From positions 10,223 to 74,222 of IMG/VR virus record IMGVR_UViG_3300032007_004072: a stretch of 64,000 bases of DNA; one strand, 5' to 3'. The stretch comes from a virus. Its lineage: Duplodnaviria > Heunggongvirae > Uroviricota > Caudoviricetes. The position numbers and the translations under genes are program-made. Under the pieces are notes generated by a model. It worked only from the letters and a program-made list of their open reading frames with translations. It was not told the DNA's origin and searched no databases. Within the stretch, counting starts at the first letter, position 1. Each line of letters begins with the position of its first letter. This document shows positions 1,657 to 58,745 of the stretch, piece by piece.

Positions 1657-3340
1657 TATGTATAAAGTATTTAATAATTATCCTAAAAATTGTCCGTTGT
1701 CAGAAGTATTAAGAATAACAATGGAAAATATAAAGACATTTATTTGTAATATAGCTCCAAATACAGATTTTACTGCTACTGAAGATATAAATACACCAGT
1801 TCCTTGGGTAAATGATATGCCAGATTATATAAAAGATACGACCCCTCTAATTTTTTATTCTAATGTTGTTGATAATAGTACTAATTCTGCATTTAATCTA
1901 GATGACTTTTCTGAGTTTAAAATATCTCATTTTGCTGATATAAATTATCCTGTTTATTGCATATTTTATTCGTGGATGCCATGCCCTATTTTAATATTTG
2001 TTTCTAAATCTGGTGCTATTACATGGTCTGATTACACAAAAGGGTTAAGACCGGATGATGGATTTAGTTCGAGGCAAAGTATCTGTGTAGCTTTTGATCT
2101 AAGCATATTTAATTTGGATGCTAATAATAAGATTTCAAAGAGAGCAAAATTTAGATACACTCAAAGACATCCAATGCGTAGTGGTATAGGTGTTGATAGT
2201 ATATATGATGGTCTTTTGTATGAAGATGCTACAATAAAATCAAGTCCTATACTAATATTAGACCCATTTTATCATATGTGGGATATAGTGGCTGATGATA
2301 TAATTAGTAGCAATGTTGATAGTTTTAGTTTTGCTATGAGCTTGTATAATAAGACTATTTGTTTTTATTTTTTAAAAAATCAAAATTATGTAGCAAATAC
2401 TACATGTTTAAATTCATTTATTTCAGTTAAAGATACTCAGCTGGTTGGTGGATGTGATTTAATGAGTCCAGAGGAGGCATTGATTTGTAAATCAGATGGG
2501 GTAGCTTTTCTTAGTATGATGGCTAATGGTCATCCAGAAGGGGATGAACATTTAGAGGTGAATGATAGAGACAAAGAAAGGGATAGAACCCCATATTTAT
2601 GTTCTTATGGGCATACAGTTCGTATAGGAGATCCATATAGTTTTGTACCAGAGAGAGTACCTTTAGTTATTTTTGGTGCATATGCAGATAGTAATATTAA
2701 AGACAGAGTGTGTAATTTATGGCATAGTTCTTATAAACCTAATTTTGGGTCATATAGAAATTTTAAGCATTTTAATAATGTAGAAAAACGAGCACAGAGC
2801 TATATGTTTAAGGGTAAGTTAGCAGAAGATGATCCAGATAGGTGGGTTGGCGGTTTAGGGTGGACTTCAAATATCCTTGTTCCTACTATAATTACTTCTT
2901 TTAATTCTAGTGGGGCAGAAGGAGATGGTGTAAATTATGATGACTGGGAACTTGATAATTATAGTATACCTCATTTTCCAACTTTAACAAATGGTGATAA
3001 TATAGGGGAATATGAACATAATTATTCTTTACTTCTCTCTATGGCAAGACAAGGAGATCCAAAAGTATTTACTAAGCTATTTCCTTTTCAAACAAATAAT
3101 GTACTTAACAATCATTTTATAATGTACCCTATACATATATACATTAAGAGAGAGCCATTAGACACTAACACATATTCTATATATTGTAAATTAAACTTTG
3201 TATATTCATGTCAAAGACTGTATGATGATGATAATAGGATGCACGAGTACAATTACTTAGGTAAAAAATTTATAGGTATTTCAAATAGATATACTGGGCT
3301 ATTATTTTTAGTAGATGACTATAAGGAGTTGATAATATAA
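1649..3340 (+). CDS. hypothetical structural protein (563 aa)
   Basis: Long ORF, start overlaps upstream stop (operon-like tiling); no recognisable motif. Confidence 0.6.
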   Translation: MVSMYKVFNNYPKNCPLSEVLRITMENIKTFICNIAPNTDFTATEDINTPVPWVNDMPDYIKDTTPLIFYSNVVDNSTNSAFNLDDFSEFKISHFADINYPVYCIFYSWMPCPILIFVSKSGAITWSDYTKGLRPDDGFSSRQSICVAFDLSIFNLDANNKISKRAKFRYTQRHPMRSGIGVDSIYDGLLYEDATIKSSPILILDPFYHMWDIVADDIISSNVDSFSFAMSLYNKTICFYFLKNQNYVANTTCLNSFISVKDTQLVGGCDLMSPEEALICKSDGVAFLSMMANGHPEGDEHLEVNDRDKERDRTPYLCSYGHTVRIGDPYSFVPERVPLVIFGAYADSNIKDRVCNLWHSSYKPNFGSYRNFKHFNNVEKRAQSYMFKGKLAEDDPDRWVGGLGWTSNILVPTIITSFNSSGAEGDGVNYDDWELDNYSIPHFPTLTNGDNIGEYEHNYSLLLSMARQGDPKVFTKLFPFQTNNVLNNHFIMYPIHIYIKREPLDTNTYSIYCKLNFVYSCQRLYDDDNRMHEYNYLGKKFIGISNRYTGLLFLVDDYKELII

Positions 3341-4609
3341 ATGGCATATGTAGCATATAATAATTTAAAAACAGCCAATCAAGTCATTGAAAAAATGGCT
3401 GAGTATATAACAAGTAGAGGATTTACAGTAGTAGACGCATTAAAAGATGATGTAAATGTATACGATAGGTCTTCTGTAGATGGTAAAAAGTTTGTATTTA
3501 TGGATAAAACAAATACGTATTTTATTCATTTAAGATCATTTGAATATGTAAGTCCATTTGGTACTACTGATGACGCTGCAATGGATATAGCAACACCAGA
3601 TACTGATATAGGCTATCAAGGTGTAGCAATGACTATATCAGAAGGGTATTCTCAAACGCAAAGATGGTATAATCAGTATTTAGTACCATTAAATTATAGG
3701 GGAAATCAAGTACAATTTGTATGTATGCCTGTAGTAAATAGAAATGAGAATTATGAATATACCGAACAGGAAAATCCAGATACAAATGAAAATGCATATA
3801 CACTATATTGTAATAATACTACACTTCCAACAGATACTTTAGTATTTAGTTTAGTAGCTGAAAATGTTGGTGGAGATCAGGCAAATGGTTGGGATTATAG
3901 AGCAGTACATTTAATAGTTGGTATGCTTAATAAGTATGATGATTGGGAAGGAGGAATTTTTATGAGTGGTTCTGCCGTTCCTAGTACTATTAAGCAAGCT
4001 TATGAGTTATTCGCTAATTCTGACGCAGATGACCCTTTCCATGAAATTAAGGATGCAAATATACTTCCTGTTCTTAGTAGTGGTAGAATATCAAATACAT
4101 TTTTAAGAATGGATATAGACGATGCTCCAAAAGAAAGCAGAGGATATATTAGATGGGCATCTAGTGGTACAGATAACGTAACTGGAAAAAGATTATCAAT
4201 GCCAGTTAGAGATCCTTATGGTGGTTCTTCTGGTAATGGTAAGATACCTCATTATGGCTATATTCAATCTCAAGGTAAGTTAGACTGGGGCAGAAACATA
4301 AATACATTAAATTGTATTACGTTAAATATGCCTATGTTTATGGCTGTGCAAGTAGACCCAGATGCATTAAATAATTATGCAGGTGCTGGTCAAGTAAGCG
4401 GTGTATATTTTGTATGTATGTTAAATATGCAGACAAGTTTCTGTTATGAGATGAGCTATCCAAAATCTAATGATTTGTGTCAGGTATTTTCTATGTCAAT
4501 GCGTAGAGGAAGATTTGGGTTTGATGGTATAAGCATTAGACAAAATGAAGATGATAGTGATAGTACTATAGGAGATATTACTACAACAAGAAAAGGTATT
4601 GACGGGTAG
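3341..4609 (+). CDS. hypothetical structural protein (422 aa)
   Basis: Long ORF; ATG directly abuts upstream stop. Confidence 0.6.
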   Translation: MAYVAYNNLKTANQVIEKMAEYITSRGFTVVDALKDDVNVYDRSSVDGKKFVFMDKTNTYFIHLRSFEYVSPFGTTDDAAMDIATPDTDIGYQGVAMTISEGYSQTQRWYNQYLVPLNYRGNQVQFVCMPVVNRNENYEYTEQENPDTNENAYTLYCNNTTLPTDTLVFSLVAENVGGDQANGWDYRAVHLIVGMLNKYDDWEGGIFMSGSAVPSTIKQAYELFANSDADDPFHEIKDANILPVLSSGRISNTFLRMDIDDAPKESRGYIRWASSGTDNVTGKRLSMPVRDPYGGSSGNGKIPHYGYIQSQGKLDWGRNINTLNCITLNMPMFMAVQVDPDALNNYAGAGQVSGVYFVCMLNMQTSFCYEMSYPKSNDLCQVFSMSMRRGRFGFDGISIRQNEDDSDSTIGDITTTRKGIDG

Positions 4610-8103: not shown

Positions 8104-11100
8104 TATGGCAGCTACAGTTAAAAGTAAATCTAGTAGTACAAGTAGAGGTGGAGGTTGGTTCAATTCATTCTTGGGTTGGGGAATATCTACTTTACTTTTG
8201 TGGCTACTTAATAGAAATAATAGTGATAGTGATTCTACTTCTTCTATGCAAGCTTCACCATATACAGATAGTAATTCAAATCAAATAGGTCAACCAATAC
8301 CTGTAGCATTAGGTAGAGTAATGATAAAAAATCCTTTAATTTCTTATTATGGTGCATTTAGAGCAGATATTTATACAGAAGAGTATGGAGCACATAGTAA
8401 TCTTGATATTTGGCCTTGGATACTTAGTTTAATTCCAATTATTCTTGCTGTATCAGAGAAAGACACTATAAAGGTTACTGCTGGTACAGGAGTAGAGATA
8501 ACAGGAAGAACAACAGAGGCTATGACTATTGGCGGATTACCTGCTGCTACTGTTACTGGAGGCGGAACTTCTGGTATGAATAATAATTCTGGTAAAATTG
8601 GTGATGTGCCTAAACAGAAGACACCACCTTCGACAACTGTTTTAAATGCGATTACTTCCACTGGGCCAGCACCTGTAGAGGGAACTATTGACCTTAGTGG
8701 ACCAGGTAAAAAACGTGCTCTTATAATGCAAGCATTACTTAATTTTATTTTATGGCTATTATCATACTTAATAGGTAAACATTTATTACGTACCACTATT
8801 CAAAAAGGATTTAAATATTATCTTGGCTGGCAACATATTCTTTGTTGGACAGATGAAAATATCGGTGTTAAGAGATTGTGGATGAATGTATATGATACTG
8901 AAGTTGAGCAATCTACAGAAACTGGTGTTTGGGATAATGATAATCATATAGCATATAAAAAAGATAATCCTACTGGTATATCTGCATATATCGACAATGA
9001 CCAAATGTTTGGTGGTGTAGATGAAGGTGGAGGCTTTATTGGGGAAGTAAGGTTTTATTTTGGTACTTATGAACAACCAAAAGACTCATGGATGGTAAAT
9101 GAAATGAAAGCAGATACTATAGAGGAAGATTTGAGGGGATTGACTCCAAGATATCCGATGTTTTTAACTTGTGTAGTATCTGATAGAAATAAAGTTGATG
9201 GTGCGTATATTGGTAAACAGTCAACTATGCCAGAAATGTGGTTTGAGGTAGTAAACTATCCAACAAAGTTATATGAAGAATTTAAGTCAGATTTATTTGG
9301 TCTATATTCTAAACGTATAGGTGAGCTAGTTGATAATATTTTAGCATATATATCTAATCAAGACCAATCAGTACAAACTTATATGGAAGATTATACAAAA
9401 GAATTGCGGGAAGCTAAAGGAGAATATGACGCTTATTATAAAGCAGAACAGTTAAAAATAGATGTAATGGATAGAGCTAGAGAAAGACTGGAAGAAGCTG
9501 AACGTAGTGGAGATCAGCAAGTAATTACTGATGCACAAGAAGAATATGATAAAGCAAAACAAGAAGCAGATGAAGCTCATGAGAAAACAGAAGAAACTTT
9601 CCAAGCGTTAAGGGATGCTGCGGATGCAGTTAGAGATAATTATCCTCAAACAAATAGAGATGAGGTAGCTTCTTTAGTAGATCCTTTAGACACGCTTCTT
9701 GATAATGGTGTTTGGCATTTAGGGAAATTGGATGAAGATTTGAACCCAGCAGAGGCAATCTATGCAATTCTTACAAATGATTTATGGGGATGTAATTATG
9801 ATAGAATAACAGATATAGATGCACAGAGTTTATTGCAATTAGGCATAACTTGTGAGGAAGAAAGACTAGGTGTATCATGCTTAATTACATCAGAAGCACA
9901 GGCTGGTTCATATATTCAAAAGATATTAAATCATATAAATGGTATAATGTATGATAATCCGTATACAGGTAGACTTACATTTAAGCTTATTCGTGGTGAT
10001 TATGACCCAAGTACATTGCCTATTTTTAACCCAAGTAATTGTGAAAGCATGAAATTTACAAGATTAGATTGGTCAGAAACATCTTCAGCAACAACTGTTT
10101 CATTTACTCATGCTTCTAATAAATATGTTGATGGTACAGTAATATACCAAGATGTGGCCAATAGATTTATAACAAGATCTTATAAAGAGTCTTCAGTTGA
10201 GGGAGTTTATTATACTGTACCTAAGAACGCTGGTTGGTTAGCAAAAATCTCACAATTAGCTTCTGGTTATCCATTATCTACAGTAGAGTTTACTACAAAT
10301 AGGTTTGGTCATGATATTGGTCTTGGTGATCCAATAATAGTACATTGGTTGTCATATGGAATAGATAATCAAATATATAGAGTTACAGATATAGATTATG
10401 CTACTCTTACAGCTAATGCTATAAAGGTAACTGCAATTGAAGATATATATGGATTTGAAAATACAAGGTATGCTTATGCAGAAGTACCAGAATGGACTAA
10501 TCCTAAAAAATATGCGTCATCAATCCAGTACTATATGTATATGGAAATGCCGTATGAATGGACTAAATCTTTGGATACTTATGTTAATGCTTATGCTGCT
10601 AGACCTACAAATGATGATGATTATTATGTTAATTATAGATATACTGGAACAGAATATGCTAGAAGAACACGAACTAATGATTGGTCAATGGTAGCTCAAT
10701 TAGTATATGGTACGAAAGAAATTTATGATGAAGATAATACTGGGTTTGAGATAGAAGTTATTGGTGCTCAAGCAAGAGATTTGTTTGATGATAAATGTCA
10801 AAAAATATTAGATTATCCATCTGTATATACAAATAAATCTAATAGAAATATGATGGTAATTGACGGTGAGATACTAACATATGATACAATGATTAAATTA
10901 CCTAATGGTCATTATACGCTAACAAATGTAATTCATGGTGTATATGATACTATACCAAGAGATCATCCAGCATATTCTAAAGTTTATTTTTTGGATTATG
11001 AATTGCAGGTTGATGATAAGAGAGTAGCTACAGAAGGTAATTTTGCAGATGAGCAGTATGAACTTAGGTCTGGTACGGTAGATGAAGAAGAGCAGTTTAA

Positions 11101-31426: not shown

Positions 31427-31570
31427 GAGTTGATTAAACATGAGAGCAATGTTCTTTTGTATCTTAATAGCTTTTATTGTTATTTGGGCGTATCTATGTT
31501 TTCATTATGGTAAGGAAGTAGGTAGAGAGATAAAGAAATTTTTCAATAAGATTTTTTGAAGGAGTGCATT

Positions 31571-32455
31571 ATGGAAATTAAAAATCTTGGTGCTATTGGA
31601 ATTTTTGTTGGTATGGCAGTATGTACAGTAGGCATGTTTACTTGTGTAAATAGAATTGGCCCTGGATATGCTGGTGTAGTCTACAACATGGACGGTGGTA
31701 TTGAAAACGAAACTTTGTCACAAGGATTTCATATTGTAGCTCCATGGAAACATGTGAGTGAATATCCTATCTCTACTGAAACAGTATATTATACTAAAAA
31801 TACTGTAGACGGTAGTGATAAGGATGATAAGAAGGTAGATAAGAGTGTAAATGTTAATACTAAAGATGGTAAGCAGGTAAACACATCTGTTACTTATGCT
31901 TATCATATGGATGTAGAAAAACTACCTGCTGTTTATGCAAAGTTCAGAGGGCAAAATATTGAGTCAATTCAAAATGGCTACATGAAAAATGCTATGTATG
32001 AAGCACTTAATAATATAACTAGCCAGTATAGTCTGATGGAACTTGTAGGAGATAAACGCCCAGAGATTAATCAAAAGATATTTGAAGCGTTTAGAAATGA
32101 TTTAGAGGAATATGGCATTGTAATTGAAACTTTTAACTTATCTGATGTAGTTCCTGATGAAGCTACTGCAACTGCAATTCAAAATGTTGTGAATGCACAA
32201 AATGAACTCCAACGTGTTCGTATTGAAAAAGAACAAGCTGAAGTTGAAGCTGAAAAAGCTAGAGTTACTGCTAAAGGTAAGGCAGATGCTGCTATTATTG
32301 AAGCTGAAGGTCAAGCACAAGCTAACGCTAAATTGCAAGAATCTTTAACTGAAAATGTATTACGTCAAAGAGCAATAGAAAAATGGAATGGCGAAACTCC
32401 TAAGATTGGTGCAGGAAATAATAGTTTTATTTTGAACGCTGATTTCTTAAAATGA
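31571..32455 (+). CDS. SPFH / band-7 (prohibitin/HflC-like) membrane protein; start trimmed to ATG 31571 after GAAGGAG
   Basis: N-terminal TM; GYAGVVYNMDGGIENETLSQGFHIVAPWKHV; C-terminal EAEKARVTAKGKADAAIIEAEGQAQANAKL...RQRAIEKW. Confidence 0.8.
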   Translation: MEIKNLGAIGIFVGMAVCTVGMFTCVNRIGPGYAGVVYNMDGGIENETLSQGFHIVAPWKHVSEYPISTETVYYTKNTVDGSDKDDKKVDKSVNVNTKDGKQVNTSVTYAYHMDVEKLPAVYAKFRGQNIESIQNGYMKNAMYEALNNITSQYSLMELVGDKRPEINQKIFEAFRNDLEEYGIVIETFNLSDVVPDEATATAIQNVVNAQNELQRVRIEKEQAEVEAEKARVTAKGKADAAIIEAEGQAQANAKLQESLTENVLRQRAIEKWNGETPKIGAGNNSFILNADFLK

Positions 32456-32465
32456 GGTATATATT

Positions 32466-32948
32466 ATGTCAGATATGTTAACTTGGGCAGAAGAAGAACT
32501 TAAAAGATATAACTTTGATTTCTATGACGATAATATGAACAAAGCTGTATTAGAGGTTATAAAAACACTTGTAGATCAAGGACATACTAATATGTCAGCT
32601 TCTATTGTAATTACACTTGTAGATAGGCTTTGGAGTTGGAAACCTTTAACTCCATTAACTGGAGAAGAGGATGAGTGGTCAGATATATTAGATCCTGATG
32701 GCAATACACGGCAAAATAAAAGATATTCAGCAGTATTCAAAAATAAAGAAACTGGAGAATGTTATGATGTAGAAGGTAGAATTTTTGCTGAACCAGATGG
32801 GGTTAAATTTACCTGTAGAGAATCAAGAGTTCCAGTAGAATTTCCATACATGCCACCAGATAAGTATCCAGTGTATAAACTTAAATATAGTTCAGATGAA
32901 AAATCAGTAGAGGAACAGCTAAAAGATAATGAATATGAAATTGTATAG
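32466..32948 (+). CDS. hypothetical protein (160 aa)
   Basis: ORF tiled after the SPFH gene. Confidence 0.55.
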   Translation: MSDMLTWAEEELKRYNFDFYDDNMNKAVLEVIKTLVDQGHTNMSASIVITLVDRLWSWKPLTPLTGEEDEWSDILDPDGNTRQNKRYSAVFKNKETGECYDVEGRIFAEPDGVKFTCRESRVPVEFPYMPPDKYPVYKLKYSSDEKSVEEQLKDNEYEIV

Positions 32949-33056
32949 GTTTATGGCTATGCTTGTCATAGCTATCTTAGGAATTTTCAGTATATTATTG
33001 CTTTATCGAATTATTCCATGTCTAATTAATATGTTATTTTAAGGAGTACACTATAT

Positions 33057-33404
33057 ATGTCAGAAAATAAAATTGATTTGCTTGCCATTAAGAATGCCGA
33101 GTTGACAGCTTTAAAGAAAGAAGTAGATAAGCTAAAGGCAGAAGTAAAATCTCAAGGTGTAGGTTCATATGAAGGAAATGAATATAGAGCTATTGTAGAA
33201 GAAAGAGTATCACAAAAATTAGACCCAGAAAAAACTTTAGAAGTAGTTAAAAAGCTAAATGCAAAATGGTTACTGAAGGAGGTAGTAAATGAAGAAGCTT
33301 TGGAAGATTCTATTGCTACAGGTGAAATTGATGGTGCTGAATTTGCAGATTGTGTTATTGAGAAAAAGACTATGGCTGTCAAGTTTGTGAAGGTTAAAAA
33401 ATGA
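33057..33404 (+). CDS. hypothetical coiled-coil protein (115 aa)
   Basis: ORF with AAGGAG RBS. Confidence 0.5.
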   Translation: MSENKIDLLAIKNAELTALKKEVDKLKAEVKSQGVGSYEGNEYRAIVEERVSQKLDPEKTLEVVKKLNAKWLLKEVVNEEALEDSIATGEIDGAEFADCVIEKKTMAVKFVKVKK

Positions 33405-33517
33405 TAAAAGATGCCTATAAAGAAACATTAAAAATGCTTAAAGTCCTTGGACAAGTAGTTTTAGCAGAGTGTGGCAAGAAGCCTTCATCCTCTAAGCGAA
33501 GCGAAGGGTGGAGATGA
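33401..33517 (+). pseudogene. 5' fragment of a small membrane-protein gene interrupted by the TnpB element (MIKDAYKETLKMLKVLGQVVLAEC | then runs into the IS)
   Basis: ATG overlaps upstream stop. Deleting 33473..34836 in silico joins it in frame to 34837..35016 (see findings). Confidence 0.5.
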
Positions 33518-33581
33518 ATTGCCACAAACTACTTGCAATTATTTCTTACATATGTTACAATATAATTAGGAGGTGAGAATT

Positions 33582-34691
33582 TTGATAGTAGAAATTACTC
33601 GTGGCATGGAGTATAGGATTTATCCTACAAAAGAGCAAAGGATATTGATAAATAAAACTCTTGGTTGTAAGCGGTTTATTTACAATCATTTTCTACAGGT
33701 TCGTAGAGATGAATGGAAATTCAATCATAAAAGTGTTAATTATAGTGCTACAAATGCTATGCTTACAGACCTTAAAAAGTATGATGAGTATAGCTGGCTT
33801 AATGAAGTTGATAGTACGGCACTTCAAAATTCCCTTCGAGATTTACAAGTAGCATACGATAGATTCTTTAAAAAGATATCTAAGTATCCTAAGTTTAAGT
33901 CTAAACATGCATATTGTCAGAAATATAGAAGTCAGTGTGTAAGTAATAATATTAAATTAGTAGGTAATACAATTCAACTACCAAAGATTGGGAAAGTGAA
34001 AATCAAACTTTCTCGTGATTTGGTAGGAAAAATTGTAAATGCAACAGTTACTTGCACAGCATCTAATAAATATTATGTGTCTATTTGTGTAAAATATGAA
34101 ACAGAATTGCTTTCTAATAGTGGACATGAAATAGGTATTGATGTAGGAGTAAAAGATTTTTATGCAGATACTAATGGTAATGTGGTAAAGAATCCAAAAA
34201 TACTTGCTAAATTTGCAAAGAAATTAGCTCGTGCTCAAAGAAAATTAGTTCGTAAGAAAAAGGGTTCAGCACAATATGAAAAGCAAAGGATAAAAGTTGC
34301 TCGTATTCATGAAAAAATAAAGAATGTACGAGATGATTTTCAGCATAAATTAACTTATCACTTAACAGAAGACAATGCTTTTATAGCTATTGAGAAGTTA
34401 AACATCAAAGGCATGTTAAAGAATCACAAGTTAGCAAAAGCAATAAGTGATGTAGCATGGGGTAAGTTCTTTATTAAATTAGAATATAAAGCAAAAGAAC
34501 ATGGCGGTGTAGTAGTAAAAATACCTACATTCTACCCATCAAGTCAAACTTGTTATGAATGTGGATATAAAAATCCACTAGTAAAGAATTTACTTGTGCG
34601 AGATTGGGTATGTCCTGTATGTGGAGCGCATCATGATAGAGATAGAAATGCGGCAATAAATATTTTAGCAAAAGCAAAAGATATAGCATAA
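33582..34691 (+). CDS. tnpB: TnpB (IS605 OrfB) RNA-guided nuclease, ~369 aa; TTG start after AGGAGGTGAG (track lists GTG 33573 inside the RBS)
   Basis: N-terminal MEYRIYPTKEQRILINKTLGCKRFIYN (OrfB HTH); C-terminal Zn finger + RuvC-III: CYECGYKNPLVKNLLVRDWVCPVCGAHHDRDRNAAINIL. Confidence 0.85.
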   Translation: MIVEITRGMEYRIYPTKEQRILINKTLGCKRFIYNHFLQVRRDEWKFNHKSVNYSATNAMLTDLKKYDEYSWLNEVDSTALQNSLRDLQVAYDRFFKKISKYPKFKSKHAYCQKYRSQCVSNNIKLVGNTIQLPKIGKVKIKLSRDLVGKIVNATVTCTASNKYYVSICVKYETELLSNSGHEIGIDVGVKDFYADTNGNVVKNPKILAKFAKKLARAQRKLVRKKKGSAQYEKQRIKVARIHEKIKNVRDDFQHKLTYHLTEDNAFIAIEKLNIKGMLKNHKLAKAISDVAWGKFFIKLEYKAKEHGGVVVKIPTFYPSSQTCYECGYKNPLVKNLLVRDWVCPVCGAHHDRDRNAAINILAKAKDIA

Positions 34692-34830
34692 GAAAAATAG
34701 TACCGTAGGTCATACGGGAACTGAGGTTAGAAATAACCTCTACGCCTTTGGAGATTATGTAAGACACTGAAACTAAGGTTTTGGCGCATTAGTCGATGAA
34801 TCAGGAATCCCCCACCTCTATAGGTGGTGG
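34692..34830 (+). ncRNA. candidate TnpB omega-RNA (reRNA) scaffold, 3' portion (likely begins inside the tnpB 3' end); ends at the right-end hairpin
   Basis: GC-enriched. Stem-loops CCGTA-ggtca-TACGG, GAGGTTA-gaaa-TAACCTC, CCACCT-ctat-AGGTGG. The guide would be the sequence immediately 3' (agtgttcaatattttc...). Confidence 0.4.
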
Positions 34831-34836
34831 GAGTGT

Positions 34837-35016
34837 TCAATATTTTCAGTAATAGCATTAGTAGTAGCAACAATTACAACGTCTACTCTTTGGCTAGTAG
34901 AAACATATTTTAGCGGTAATCTTTTTTGTGCTGTTGTTGGTACTATAATAGATTTTGTATTATCAATATTTATACTTAATTTAATAATTGTATATTTGGA
35001 TAGGAAGGTGGATTAA
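34837..35016 (+). pseudogene. 3' fragment (2 TM) of the gene interrupted by the TnpB element: SIFSVIALVVATITTSTLWLVETYFSGNLFCAVVGTIIDFVLSIFILNLIIVYLDRKVD*
   Basis: Open frame with no start codon of its own. In frame with the 33401 fragment once the IS is removed. Confidence 0.5.
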
Positions 35017-35232
35017 TTGCCAAAAGTAAATTCTATACATTGTGTTAGTTCTAGGACTATGAAAATTAAGGATGAATTCTATAAATTTGAGGTTGGCTAT
35101 GATGCTAATGTTGAAGATCTTAAAGATGAAGATGTAGATGACTATATTGCTAGTCTTTATGAAAGAGCAAATGCTTTAGTGGATGATCAGGCCGAAGAAA
35201 CTGTTAAGTCATTAACTCCAAATGAGGATTGA
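35017..35232 (+). CDS. small acidic protein (71 aa), TTG start
   Basis: GGAAGGTGGA RBS; ORF from track. Confidence 0.45.
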   Translation: MPKVNSIHCVSSRTMKIKDEFYKFEVGYDANVEDLKDEDVDDYIASLYERANALVDDQAEETVKSLTPNED

Positions 35233-35257
35233 CAAATAAATAAATTTATGGTATAAT
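35229..35257 (+). promoter_or_regulatory. sigma-A-like promoter: TTGACA, 17 nt, TATAAT; -10 region identical to the 15991 promoter
   Basis: aTTGACAaataaataaatttatggTATAATataattagaga. Confidence 0.65.
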
Positions 35258-35276
35258 ATAATTAGAGAACAAATAT

Positions 35277-35303
35277 GCAAGGCAAGATGTCTTGCTTTTT
35301 GTT
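35277..35303 (+). terminator. terminator-type hairpin + U-tract in the nrdD 5' leader (candidate attenuator)
   Basis: AAGGCAAG-atgt-CTTGCTTT then TTTTTGTTTTAT, ~20 nt after the predicted TSS and upstream of the nrdD RBS. Confidence 0.5.
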
Positions 35304-35314
35304 TTATGTAAAAA

Positions 35315-37534
35315 GTGAGGGTGAGTTATGTGGTAAAGGTTAGAAAAAGAGATGGGAGCTTACAGGATTTTAATGCGGAAAAGATATACAAGGCAGTACA
35401 AAAAGCAGGGGATTTATCTTATTCAGATATAAATTCTGTGGTACAGAAAGTTACAAAAAAATTGAGAAAATTATCAGATATTTCTGTTCATGATATACAA
35501 ACTGCTATAGAAAATGAGTTGATGCACTCTCACTTTTATGATGTAGCAAGAAGTTATATTTCTTATAGACATTTGCATGATGTAGCAAGAGAAAAATATG
35601 CACAACTATTAGATATAGTAGACGAAAAATTATTTGCAAAAAATGTTCAAAACCAAAATGCTAATGTGGATGAAAGATCTTTTGGTGGTCGTAAAGGTGA
35701 AATGACCAATGAACTTTTAAAGGACTACGCTTTAAATTACTGTATGTCTAAAATGGCAAGAGATAATCATCTAAATAACGAAATTTATATACACGATCTT
35801 GATAGTTATGCGCTTGGGCTTCATAATTGTTTATCTTGTCCTTTAGATCATTTACTTATGTATGGTTTTAATACTAGACAAGTAGATATTAGACCTGCCA
35901 ATTCTATAAATACTGCTATGCAGTTAGTTGCAGTTATTTTTCAGCTTCAAAGTCTTGCTCAATTTGGTGGAGTTGCTGCAACACATGTTGATTGGACTAT
36001 GATTCCTTATGTAAGAAAGTCCTTTAATAAGCATTTTTGTGATGGATTAAAATATATTGAAGAAGCAGATGATTTGGTTATTGTATATAAAGAACCTTGT
36101 GGAGCAAATGTAGTTGATATATCTATTGATGATAATTGGTATAAAAAGATACCTAAAGTGTATAAATATGCGATGGATATGACGATAAAAGAAACAGAAC
36201 AGGCAGTTGAGGGATTATACCATAATTTAAATTCTTTACAAAGTCGCTCTGGCAATCAGTTACCATTTTCTTCAATTAATTTTGGCACATGTACTAGTAT
36301 TGAGGGAAGACTTGTTATTAGGGCATTGCTTGAAGGAAGTATCAGAGGTGTGGGGAGATTACACAAAACTTCTGTGTTTCCCTGCGTCATTTTCCAGGTT
36401 GGGGAAGGAATAAATAAACATAAAGGAGATCCTAATTATGATTTATTTAGATTAGCTTTAACATGTACGGCTAAAAGACTTTATCCTAACTATGCTAACA
36501 TAGATTGGTCTGTAAATGAGGGGTATGATAAGAATGATCCAAATACATTTATGGCAACTATGGGATGCCGCACATATAATGGGTTCGATATAAATGGTCT
36601 TGGTCAGCTTAAAGATGGTAGAGGTAATATTACTCCAGTTACTATTATTCTTCCTACTTTAGCTATGGAGACTAAAGAATCTTTAAGTGATAATGATGAT
36701 TTAGTGGAAAAATTTATGGAATACTTAGATGTTAAAATATCTGAAGGTATTGAGATGCTTGTTGAAAGATATGAGTGGATTTGTTCTCAAGATCCAGCAT
36801 CTGCTACTTTTATGTGGGAAAATAATACTATGGTAGGTTATGATGGTAAAGATATTAGATCTGCTATGAAACATGGTACATTGGCTCTCGGTCAATTAGG
36901 GCTAAGTGAAACTTTAGAAATACTTATTGGATGTGACCATACAACAGAAGAAGGTATGGAGTTGGCTAAACGTATCGAGAAATTATTTTATGATAGATGT
37001 AAAGCTTATAAATTAGAACATAAATTAAATGTTGGAGTATATTTTTCTCCTGCTGAAAATCTTTGTTATACAGCAATGAATAAATTTAAGAAAAAGTATG
37101 GAGTAATTTCTAAAGTATCAGATAAAAAATATTTTACAAATAGTATACATGTACCTGTATATAAAAAGGTTGATGTATTTGAAAAAATAGATATTGAATC
37201 ACAGTTGACAGGATATTCAAATGCTGGCTGTATAACTTACGTAGAACTTGATGCTACCGCTAAACATAATATAGACGCTTTAGAGAAGATAGTTATTTAT
37301 GCCATGGATAAAGATATTCCATATTTCGCTATAAATGTCCCTAATGATACTTGTCAAAATTGTGGGTATTGTGATGAAATGAATGATACTTGTCCTAAGT
37401 GTGGTAGTAGTGATATTCAAAGATTACGTAGGGTCACAGGGTATATGACTTCAGATTATAAGAAAGCATTTAATTTAGGTAAACAGCAAGAAGTAGAGAT
37501 GCGAGTAAAACATACTGGAGTTGAGATGGATTGA
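35315..37534 (+). CDS. nrdD: anaerobic ribonucleoside-triphosphate reductase (class III RNR), 739 aa, with N-terminal ATP-cone and C-terminal glycyl-radical motif
   Basis: ATP-cone VVKVRKRDGSLQDFNAEKIYKAVQKA; Cys-rich CQNCGYCDEMNDTCPKCG; glycyl radical RRVTGYM. Confidence 0.9.
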   Translation: MRVSYVVKVRKRDGSLQDFNAEKIYKAVQKAGDLSYSDINSVVQKVTKKLRKLSDISVHDIQTAIENELMHSHFYDVARSYISYRHLHDVAREKYAQLLDIVDEKLFAKNVQNQNANVDERSFGGRKGEMTNELLKDYALNYCMSKMARDNHLNNEIYIHDLDSYALGLHNCLSCPLDHLLMYGFNTRQVDIRPANSINTAMQLVAVIFQLQSLAQFGGVAATHVDWTMIPYVRKSFNKHFCDGLKYIEEADDLVIVYKEPCGANVVDISIDDNWYKKIPKVYKYAMDMTIKETEQAVEGLYHNLNSLQSRSGNQLPFSSINFGTCTSIEGRLVIRALLEGSIRGVGRLHKTSVFPCVIFQVGEGINKHKGDPNYDLFRLALTCTAKRLYPNYANIDWSVNEGYDKNDPNTFMATMGCRTYNGFDINGLGQLKDGRGNITPVTIILPTLAMETKESLSDNDDLVEKFMEYLDVKISEGIEMLVERYEWICSQDPASATFMWENNTMVGYDGKDIRSAMKHGTLALGQLGLSETLEILIGCDHTTEEGMELAKRIEKLFYDRCKAYKLEHKLNVGVYFSPAENLCYTAMNKFKKKYGVISKVSDKKYFTNSIHVPVYKKVDVFEKIDIESQLTGYSNAGCITYVELDATAKHNIDALEKIVIYAMDKDIPYFAINVPNDTCQNCGYCDEMNDTCPKCGSSDIQRLRRVTGYMTSDYKKAFNLGKQQEVEMRVKHTGVEMD

Positions 37535-45009: not shown

Positions 45010-46035
45010 ATGCCTATGTTATTCATAGGAAAAGATAATATACCAGTAATGGCTAGTGTCCAAGACATAATGCTATTACTGCAAAAAACATTACATAGAG
45101 AAAATATTAATCTTTTAAAAGACCTGTGGATGCCAAAATCACCAGGACAAGATATAGTATTTACTTGTCCTTTTCATAAGAATGGTAATGAAAATAGACC
45201 ATCAGCAGGTATAATGACAAGAGCAGATAGAGATACTGGCAAAGTATATTTTAATTGTTTTACTTGTCATGAGAAAGGCACACTAGAAACATTAGTATCA
45301 AGATGTTTTGGATATTATGGTGAAAATTTTGGTGCTCAATGGATACTTAAACATTTTGGCACTATAGAAGTAGAAAATAGAGAAGGGTTAATATATATTC
45401 CTTCACGAGAAAAGCCAAAACCAAAAAAGATAGAATATGTAAGTGAAGAAGAATTGGATAGTTATAGATATACATGCACTTACATGTATGATAGGTATCT
45501 TAATGATGAAATGATTGACTTGTATGATATAGGATATCAAAAAGATTTTTATGGACAAGAAGCTATAACTTTTCCTGTTTTAGATATACAAGGAAGATGC
45601 TTATTTGTGGCAAGAAGATGTATACATAAAAAATATTATTGGTATCCCCCTAATTCAGATAAGCCTTTATATGGTATATGGGAAGCAAGAAAGTTATTTC
45701 CTAATTCAAAAGTATGCTATATCGTAGAGTCAATGTTGAATGCTATTACATTAGTTAAAAATGGATTTTGTGCTATTGCCATGCTTGGTACAGGAACTAA
45801 TACTCAGATAGAAGAAATTAAAAAACTAGGTTACAGGAGATACATAATTGCTACTGATCCTGACCAGGCTGGTTATAGGTCAAGAGATAAACTAATAGAA
45901 GCATTAAAATCAGTAGCATTCCTAGAATATTTAGATTTACCTCAAGGATGTGATGTTAATGACTTAGGTAAATATGATAAGGAAACATTTGTTAAGCTTA
46001 TTGATATGTATACGAAACATTTATATTCAAGATAA
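45010..46035 (+). CDS. DnaG-type DNA primase (341 aa): CHC2 Zn finger + TOPRIM domain
   Basis: CPFHKNGNENRPSAGI...CFTCHEKG; TOPRIM YIVESMLNAITL...IIATDPDQAG. Confidence 0.85.
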   Translation: MPMLFIGKDNIPVMASVQDIMLLLQKTLHRENINLLKDLWMPKSPGQDIVFTCPFHKNGNENRPSAGIMTRADRDTGKVYFNCFTCHEKGTLETLVSRCFGYYGENFGAQWILKHFGTIEVENREGLIYIPSREKPKPKKIEYVSEEELDSYRYTCTYMYDRYLNDEMIDLYDIGYQKDFYGQEAITFPVLDIQGRCLFVARRCIHKKYYWYPPNSDKPLYGIWEARKLFPNSKVCYIVESMLNAITLVKNGFCAIAMLGTGTNTQIEEIKKLGYRRYIIATDPDQAGYRSRDKLIEALKSVAFLEYLDLPQGCDVNDLGKYDKETFVKLIDMYTKHLYSR

Positions 46036-58076: not shown

Positions 58077-58745
58077 ATGGCATATTTACTGAAATATACA
58101 GATGAATTTGGTGGCACTGGTTACTTTGATGATTTTAATGATAAACTTGTAGAATTTAATACTACTGCTGAAGCAGAGAAAAAAGCAGAAGAACTTCTTG
58201 ATATGGAATATGATGATTTTGGTACTGCTATTACTAAGTATTACGTTGTAGAAGTTGGTGCAAAGGCTCTTAAAGAGATTAAATCCTTTAGAATCACTGA
58301 TGATGGTACTGAATGTGCTCTTAGTTGTACAGATGATAGTGCTAAAGAGTTAGAGAACTCTTTAGCAGAAGTTAAAAAACAGTATGATATTGATATTACT
58401 GAAGATAGAACTTATGATAATGGCTCTCGTATTATTAGATTTACTTATCAGAAGAAGAAAAAGGAAGAAAAGTCTGTAGTAAATAATGACTATGAAGTAG
58501 TGGTCATTCATGGTAAAAATGTTTTTACTATTGGTTTTGATGTAAAGAAATGCTTTGTTGAACTTAATCTTCTTGCTCGTGTTCTTATGGATAAATATAG
58601 AGATGAGATTATATCCTATAATAGTGAACGTAGAAATAATGCAGGTACAATTTCTTTTGCTCTTGTTAAAAAGCAAGAAGAATTTAAAGAAGATCTCCTT
58701 AAAGGAATAGAAGTATTTTTTAAGGCTAAAGTTATTGAAGAGTAA
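58077..58745 (+). CDS. hypothetical acidic protein (222 aa)
   Basis: GAGGAGG RBS; ORF from track. Confidence 0.55.
   Translation: MAYLLKYTDEFGGTGYFDDFNDKLVEFNTTAEAEKKAEELLDMEYDDFGTAITKYYVVEVGAKALKEIKSFRITDDGTECALSCTDDSAKELENSLAEVKKQYDIDITEDRTYDNGSRIIRFTYQKKKKEEKSVVNNDYEVVVIHGKNVFTIGFDVKKCFVELNLLARVLMDKYRDEIISYNSERRNNAGTISFALVKKQEEFKEDLLKGIEVFFKAKVIEE

Follow-up and report, generated by a model that had tools for sequence, protein, structure and literature searches.

A split membrane-protein gene and the boundaries of the insertion

The DNA considered here (the window) is a stretch of 64,000 nucleotides from the Caudoviricetes record IMGVR_UViG_3300032007_004072 of IMG/VR (positions 10,223 to 74,222), in which the two parts of a small membrane-protein gene stand on either side of tnpB and of the structured ends that accompany it (Table 1). 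It had been proposed from the letters alone (the original prediction) that a TnpB-bearing insertion sequence (IS) had split this gene and that its in-silico removal restores the gene, and both proposals were borne out, the former by the TnpB domains and the uninterrupted homologs, and the latter at a join of 33464 to 34841. The intervening 1,376 bp are, with high confidence, a non-autonomous IS of the IS200/IS605 family, which contains only tnpB and a 3' scaffold of the putative omega RNA (ωRNA), and which was inserted in codon 22 without duplication of the target. This is an ordinary transposon insertion, and TnpB-bearing IS in phage genomes, as well as the disruption of genes by them, are already well known.

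Table 1. Positions of the split gene, the inserted element with its parts, and the neighbouring empty site in the window
Feature	Positions	Strand	Description
5' part of the split gene	33401..33464	+	Codons 1-21 and the first base of codon 22; from alignment to the intact L001 and L002 genes and 22 homologs
Target motif (target-adjacent motif, TAM) TTTAG	33460..33464	+	Directly 5' of the element; five independent insertions follow TTTAR
Inserted element	33465..34840	+	1,376 bp, IS200/IS605 family, TnpB only; the exact difference between filled and empty sites
Left end	33465..33572	+	Starts CAGAGTGTGGCAAG; long imperfect hairpin at about 33470-33526; promoter-like site at 33533-33561
Left GAGTGT	33467..33472	+	Inside the element; left-end linker and hairpin foot
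tnpB	33573..34691	+	372 amino acids from GTG 33573; 369 amino acids from TTG 33582
Right end and putative ωRNA scaffold	34692..34840	+	Terminal hairpin 34808-34832; TCAA 34837-34840
Right GAGTGT	34831..34836	+	First two bases close the right-end hairpin stem; the rest is linker before TCAA
Predicted ωRNA guide flank	34841..34860	+	TATTTTCAGTAATAGCATTA; exact match to the L001 empty alleles; directly 3' of the right end
3' part of the split gene	34841..35016	+	Last two bases of codon 22 to the stop codon (35014-35016); without an in-frame start of its own
Empty site B	35245..35266	+	TTAG/A at 35265/35266; sister copy here in L001 and L106

The phage has no DNA-level match in the GenBank phage collection, where its left flank gave no blastn match, and the contigs for comparison were taken from IMG/VR and from metagenome assemblies. 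Two of the IMG/VR contigs, UViG_3300028048_000107 (L001, 92 kb) and UViG_3300028591_000278 (L002, 55 kb), carry the flanking genes at 96-98% protein identity to the window, and the small gene is uninterrupted in both of them, as it is in the related phage contigs L110 and L111. The empty sites of L001, L106, L002, L110 and L111 read ...GTAGTTATAG/TATTTTCAG... or ...CTAG/TATTTTCAG... (a slash marks the junction), or overall GTAGTT(A)TAG/TATTTTCAG, whereas in the window the insertion lies between TTTAG/ and /TATTTTCAG, with no target duplication. Set side by side, the empty site of L001 and L002 is ...GGACAAGTAGTTATAG/TATTTTCAGTAATAGC..., and the filled site of the window (site A) is ...GGACAAGTAGTTTTAG/CAGAGTGTGGCAAG...GGGAGTGTTCAA/TATTTTCAGTAATAGC...; since the filled and empty sites differ by just this segment, the inserted DNA is exactly that given in Table 1. 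Position 33461 is T in the window and A or C in the empty alleles. A left boundary at 33459 was considered and rejected, as it predicts an ancestor of 77 amino acids, unlike all 22 homologs. The contigs L107 and L108, assembled from two other sequencing runs, are 100% the same as the window over 6.2 and 3.3 kb, the insertion included, and therefore the arrangement is not an assembly artefact.

The open reading frame (ORF) of 38 codons annotated at the start of the locus (33401-33517) is a composite, the last 17 codons of which are element sequence, and the start-less frame that the original prediction had described as ending at 35016 does exist, being open from 34777. Joining 33464 to 34841 gives a gene of 240 nt and 79 residues (...GQVVL-VFSVIAL...), in which 232 of the 240 nt are the same as in L001; the insertion thus ends the native protein sequence at residue 21, and the other 58 codons have no start. 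In the restored protein, a charged N-terminus precedes two hydrophobic segments (residues ~14-40 and ~47-74), in agreement with the two transmembrane (TM) helices predicted earlier, and the insertion falls at the beginning of the first segment. The uninterrupted gene, which the original prediction had proposed to seek in related genomes, was found not only in the related contigs but also as 22 metagenomic homologs in a search of 5.8 billion proteins; 20 of them are exactly 79 amino acids long, and one has 83, the difference in its length being C-terminal. In several homologs, the junction codon is Leu (CTA), so that the site reads CTAG/TATTTTCAG. The gene is restricted to this phage group, as judged from the homolog search, and its product, a small membrane protein with two TM segments, is dispensable. 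Its earlier description as holin- or superinfection-exclusion-like lacks support from family or context: no Pfam or PHROG family was matched by the 79-residue protein, no lysis gene or endolysin adjoins the split gene, and two TM segments alone are not diagnostic.

Other copies of the element, its target motif and terminus

A copy of the element with 95% identity lies about 230 bp downstream in L001, and likewise in L106, which was assembled independently; it comes after a gene of 71 amino acids, at a place where the window is empty (site B; L001 5469-6836). The similarity between the window and L001 copies begins at CAGA(G/A)TGTGGCAAG and stops exactly after GTGTTCAA, the first and last bases being the same. 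Metagenome assemblies yielded three more insertion sites of this lineage (L113, L115-117 and L118; Table 2), and a metagenome scan with the right-end 25-mer found again only the L001 contig. All five independent insertions are preceded by TTTAR (TTTAG in four, TTTAA in one), and all five right ends finish with ...GTGTTCAA/, i.e., with TCAA, before unrelated flanks; the ends of the lineage can be written as CAGAGyGTGGCAAG... on the left and ...GGAATC-hairpin-AGTGTTCAA on the right.

Table 2. Flanks and ends of the five independent insertions
Site	5' flank	Left end	Right end	3' flank
Window	GTTTTAG	CAGAGTGTGGCAAG	GGGAGTGTTCAA	TATTTTCAG
L001/L106	ATTTAA	CAGAATGTGGCAAG	GGAAGTGTTCAA	AGAACAAAT
L113	ATTTTAG	CGAAGCGTGGCAAG	GGGAGTGTTCAA	GTAAATTTG
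L115-117	CTTTAG	CAGAGCGTGGCAAG	GGGAGTGTTCAA	TAGGTAATC
L118	ATTTTAG	CATAGCGTGACAAG	GGGAATGTTCAA	ATGTCCTTC

In L115-117, it is a thymidine kinase gene that is split (L115 2384-3760, L116, L117 809-2185). Excision of 1,377 bp by the same rule in L117 restores a protein of 189 amino acids, with a Pfam thymidine kinase match over positions 4-175 of 176, and the boundary rule is therefore independently validated. Scarless excision without duplication is seen both at site A and at the thymidine kinase site, when the filled state is compared with the empty or restored one. The contig L113, a 27-kb phage contig, contains two TnpB elements (1-1070 and 2884-4252), of which the second belongs to the lineage studied here, and the first has a different right end, ...GGTGGTGGGAGGAAGCCAA.

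Element anatomy

The left end contains a promoter-like site, TTGCAA-17-TACAAT, identified by a promoter scan, and a hairpin with a DNA fold z-score of -2.3, the outer stem of which shows a compensatory change in L118 (GTGACAA/TTGTCAC versus GTGGCAA/TTGCCAC); copies from Kurthia have a homologous left end. The tnpB start is likelier to be the TTG than the GTG, because the GTG lies directly against the ribosome-binding site AGGAGG and the protein had been called with 369 amino acids in identical contigs. The Pfam domains HTH_OrfB_IS605, OrfB_IS605 (RuvC) and Cas12f1-like_TNB (zinc ribbon) were matched at E=5e-16, 1e-26 and 4e-24, respectively; the RuvC D/E/D motifs (IGIDVG, AIEKLN, HDRDRNAA) and both CxxC pairs are intact, and an alignment with ISDra2 TnpB (PDB 8H1J, 8BF8, 8EXA; E=1.5e-94) covers almost the whole protein. 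The window and L001 proteins are separated by a synonymous divergence (dS) of 0.16 and a nonsynonymous divergence (dN) of 0.024 (dN/dS 0.15), and TnpB has been under purifying selection since the two copies separated.

The right terminal hairpin has a DNA fold z-score of -3.3. Over the ~150 nt from the stop codon to TCAA, 38 consensus pairs were obtained by RNAalifold for copies of 55-95% TnpB identity, 10 of them being kept through changes on both sides, and the region looks like the expected ωRNA scaffold; it matches no Rfam family. Both ends thus carry subterminal hairpins with compensatory changes, and they are not inverted repeats of each other. By the published rule, the guide is taken from the flank directly 3' of the right end (PMC10055086), and the predicted guide is accordingly TATTTTCAGTAATAGC... 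from 34841; the start at TCAATATTT (34837) in the original prediction should be moved four bases downstream, to TATTTTCAG. With 0-1 mismatch allowed, the guide 16-mer occurs in the window only once. At three or fewer mismatches, the 16-nt predicted guide has nine matches in the window (e.g., 45072-45087 and 58392-58407) versus 2.7 expected, a count that none of 100 shuffles reached; apart from the true site, all of these have at least two mismatches, and the excess is probably an oligonucleotide bias.

Site B, nrdD and the neighbouring genes

The region of site B is an insertion hotspot. When empty, the site reads ...TTGACA(a/t)TTTATTTAA-TTTGTGGTATAATATAATTAG/AGAACAAAT... in L002, with a close variant in the window and L109, and in L001 and L106 the element stands between ...TTTATTTAA/ and /AGAACAAAT, and 21 bp (window 35245-35265) that every available empty site has are missing. 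This segment, which has TAM-like sequences at both its limits (TTTAA/ and ATTAG/), takes in the -10 box of the perfect promoter (TTGACA-17-TATAAT) located upstream of nrdD; it could have been lost after insertion at TTTAA or could have been already absent from the L001 lineage. At 35229-35305, directly upstream of nrdD, there are this sigma-70-type promoter, which also has the TG, and, 20 nt beyond it, a hairpin and T-run resembling a terminator, and the two together may form a regulatory leader.

The nrdD of the window (35315-37534, 739 amino acids) is uninterrupted, and in the relatives (L002 4249-7178; L106 4661-6216) it is interrupted by an HNH endonuclease ORF in L002 (5589-6074; Pfam HNH_3, I-HmuI NUMOD-like) and by a GIY-YIG ORF in L106. 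Near the end of a gene of 72 amino acids, L002 also contains a different TnpB-like gene of 448 amino acids (2620-4170), with a weak OrfB_IS605 match below the Pfam cut-off, followed by a decayed duplicate of the 3' end of the 72-residue gene, which suggests that the insert was acquired together with flanking DNA.

The split gene is surrounded by genes for an SPFH/Band 7 protein and a Tad3 Thoeris inhibitor and by small ORFs of no recognised function, followed by NrdD/NrdG. The Tad3 gene, two genes upstream of the split gene (32466-32948, 160 amino acids), matches Pfam PF25185 'Type I Thoeris inhibitor Tad3' at E=2.9e-30 and is adjoined by the SPFH/Band 7 gene (31556-32455), and the genes around appear to form an accessory or anti-defence region. 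The end of the Tad3 gene is overlapped by an ORF of 37 codons (32929-33042), the product of which has one hydrophobic helix; the ORF is kept in L001 (4530-4643) and likely encodes a second small membrane protein of the region.

Mobilisation, age and relation to known systems

Neither a TnpA, sought by tblastn with the TnpA proteins of two relatives, nor a second TnpB was found in the 64-kb window, and the left end, with its 108 nt, is too short for a TnpA ORF. Since the window contains no TnpA, the element is non-autonomous and would depend on TnpA in trans, as is the case for most tnpB elements, which are non-autonomous (PMC10055086). In the Kurthia relative L035, a Y1 transposase is encoded upstream of tnpB (Pfam Y1_Tnp, E=5e-42). 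In the Succinivibrio copies L032-L034, a YHFVFCPRFRR motif soon followed by a stop, together with a stretch like the C-terminus of TnpA, lies ~130 nt upstream of tnpB; these copies appear to retain a collapsed tnpA remnant, with the autonomous forms decaying to tnpB-only ones. The scan of bacterial genomes gave no close copy of the element, the best being that of Succinivibrio (56% amino acid identity), and blastn against the GenBank phages gave distant tnpB genes only. An exact-sequence look-up of the window TnpB returned no record, and neither did that of P0148.

The element copies of the window and L001 differ by 5.0%, and the identity of the phage backbones is 94.6% on the left and 98.2% between the two sites. 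The copies at sites A and B are thus as divergent as the backbones, and therefore the two insertions are not fresh derivatives of each other; the recent insertion supposed in the original prediction is not demonstrable. Both halves of the split gene are free of frameshifts and stops, which carries little weight for 240 nt at ~3% divergence.

In every testable respect, the element agrees with the IS200/IS605 family, apart from the absence of its own TnpA. ISDra2 of Deinococcus radiodurans is alike in the near-full-length alignment of TnpB with the same domain set, in the structured RNA at the 3' end that runs into the right end, and in the T-rich target motif of 5 nt located 5' of the left end; however, the window element has no tnpA and is resident in a phage. 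The TAM of ISDra2 is TTGAT, as compared with the TTTAR inferred for the window element. The right end of IS608 from Helicobacter pylori, ...hairpin-AGTnT(G)TCAA with GAAT at the foot of the hairpin before it, resembles that of the window element, whereas IS608 is targeted to TTAC and contains tnpA, and the window element follows TTTAR and lacks this gene. As the mechanistic model of IS200/IS605 (PMC10055086), IS608 also shares with it the insertion 3' of a short target without duplication, the scarless excision and the subterminal hairpins. The IS1341-type tnpB-only elements, such as ISGst of Geobacillus (PMC10055086), have likewise only tnpB between conserved ends, a presumed TnpA in trans and a donor joint targeted by TnpB, but, unlike them, the window element resides in phage genomes. 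An IS607-type element, with a serine-recombinase TnpA and TnpB, was rejected, for the TnpA of the relatives is of the Y1 type, and the hairpin ends and TCAA terminus are of the IS605 type.

By the published IS200/IS605 mechanism, a Y1 TnpA acting in trans would have inserted the element in single-stranded form. The element-free alleles would be cut by TnpB and its ωRNA (guide TATTTTCAGTAATAGC..., TAM TTTAR), recombination would copy the element back into them, and the occupied allele, having TTCAA before the guide bases instead of TTTAR, would be protected from self-cleavage.

Alternative explanations

The original prediction had placed the element at 33473-34836, with the repeated GAGTGT as a duplication-like mark of the junctions and with an 83- or 84-residue protein after excision, and this version is now very improbable. 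The hexamers are present at both places, each in phase with the flanking frame, and the join of 33472 to 34837 does leave the frame open, although over 83 codons rather than 84. However, the 12 extra bases, and the residues AECS with them, are absent from all empty sites and all 22 homologs, the native protein being of 79 amino acids. By the empty sites, the left end lies 8 bp outside the claimed one and the right end 4 bp outside it, so that the junctions were wrong and the claim to have fixed the boundaries to within 6 bp fails on the left; having been named beforehand as what would decide the matter, these sites join elsewhere than at GAGTGT, which refutes the junction and leaves the idea of a split gene intact. 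The likeness of the sister copies extends past either hexamer, to CAGA... on the left side and ...TCAA on the right, and the left hexamer is GAATGT, AAGCGT, GAGCGT or TAGCGT in them; the exact six-base match is therefore peculiar to the window copy. Within this TnpB clade, the motif of the right hexamer is conserved: the Succinivibrio copies (54-56% TnpB identity) keep the layout GGAATC-hairpin-AGTGT(T)CAA, and varied forms of it occur in Kurthia, in Brochothrix phage A9 and in further relatives. Nor is the repeat so improbable as had been thought: a common hexamer between two 20-nt zones is expected by chance in 10% of cases in this genome, or in 3% if the same phase is required. The repeated GAGTGT is element-internal sequence beside the left and right hairpins. 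The hexamers are direct and not inverted repeats, which, with the absence of a target duplication, fits the strand-asymmetric architecture of IS200/IS605, a family whose elements make no target duplication (PMC10055086).

It is equally improbable that the element is an IStron-like fusion of an IS with a self-splicing intron, which would leave the mRNA by splicing so that the 79-residue protein is still made. Like the CdISt1-like IStrons, it is a TnpB-bearing element located within a gene of a low-GC genome in the same orientation as its host gene, and TnpB-bearing IStrons are known from low-GC anaerobes (PMC10690162, PMC4227781). However, no Rfam family, group I and II introns included, was matched in 33000-35400 even at E<=1, and just 108 nt precede tnpB, which form a transposon-type hairpin common to the Kurthia IS605 copies, the relatives with a Y1 TnpA having the classic IS605 layout. 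No ribozyme is thus detectable in the window element, unlike in the IStrons, and therefore the gene is truly interrupted. The idea that the two fragments are naturally separate genes, or that an assembly chimera has joined them, has nothing in its favour beyond the annotated 38-codon ORF; it is contradicted by the 22 homologs, which are single genes, by the lack of a start codon in the downstream part and by the identical arrangement assembled from two other sequencing runs, and its probability is close to negligible.

The preferred reading, a non-autonomous IS200/IS605 element inserted without duplication, has also points that weigh against it. The TAM is defined from five independent sites only, and the insertion at site B is not clean, its 21-bp loss being unexplained by the simple model. 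No mobilising TnpA with matching ends was found in the bacterial genome scan, and ωRNA expression and cleavage by TnpB are only predicted here.

With the element itself so identified, it may owe its spread among the phages less to transposition by TnpA than to homing guided by TnpB in co-infected cells, and would do by RNA guidance what free-standing homing endonucleases do in T4-like phages; this is possible, though rather unlikely. It would be consistent with the absence of TnpA from the window, the purifying selection on TnpB, and the polymorphism for the presence of the element at the same sites in closely related phages, where the empty alleles have a perfect match to the guide but imperfect TAMs (TATAG, ACTAG, ATTAG). 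Insertions of HNH and GIY-YIG endonucleases abound in the neighbourhood, and the concept of homing of TnpB elements into co-infecting phages has already been published (PMC13565253). However, the five sites with unrelated guides need true transposition at least four times, the TAM differences come from few alleles, and the argument is drawn from sequence comparison only. A little more doubtful is the specific proposal that the tnpB-only element is an RNA-guided homing drive between co-infecting phages, in which TnpB-ωRNA would cut the element-free alleles having TTTAR with the flank, and the element would be copied into them by recombination.

Significance for the phages and the TnpB lineage

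The source phage is a gut or rumen phage, and the data set, a natural one with controls of its own, comprises five independent insertions of one compact (369-372 amino acids) ISDra2-like TnpB lineage. Comparison of its reciprocally filled and empty sites determines the ends with single-base precision, and the set gives the TAM TTTAR, the terminus TCAA and the start of the guide. With the ends, TAM and guide so defined, the TnpB nuclease and phage-to-phage homing become directly testable. At least in some settings, these phages can do without the 79-residue membrane protein and without thymidine kinase. If the tentative homing drive were true, the altered TAMs at the guide-matching empty alleles would be traces of conflict, the 21-bp loss beside the site B copy would be another such trace, and the element would have its parallel in the homing endonucleases (HNH and GIY-YIG) by which nrdD is invaded in these phages.

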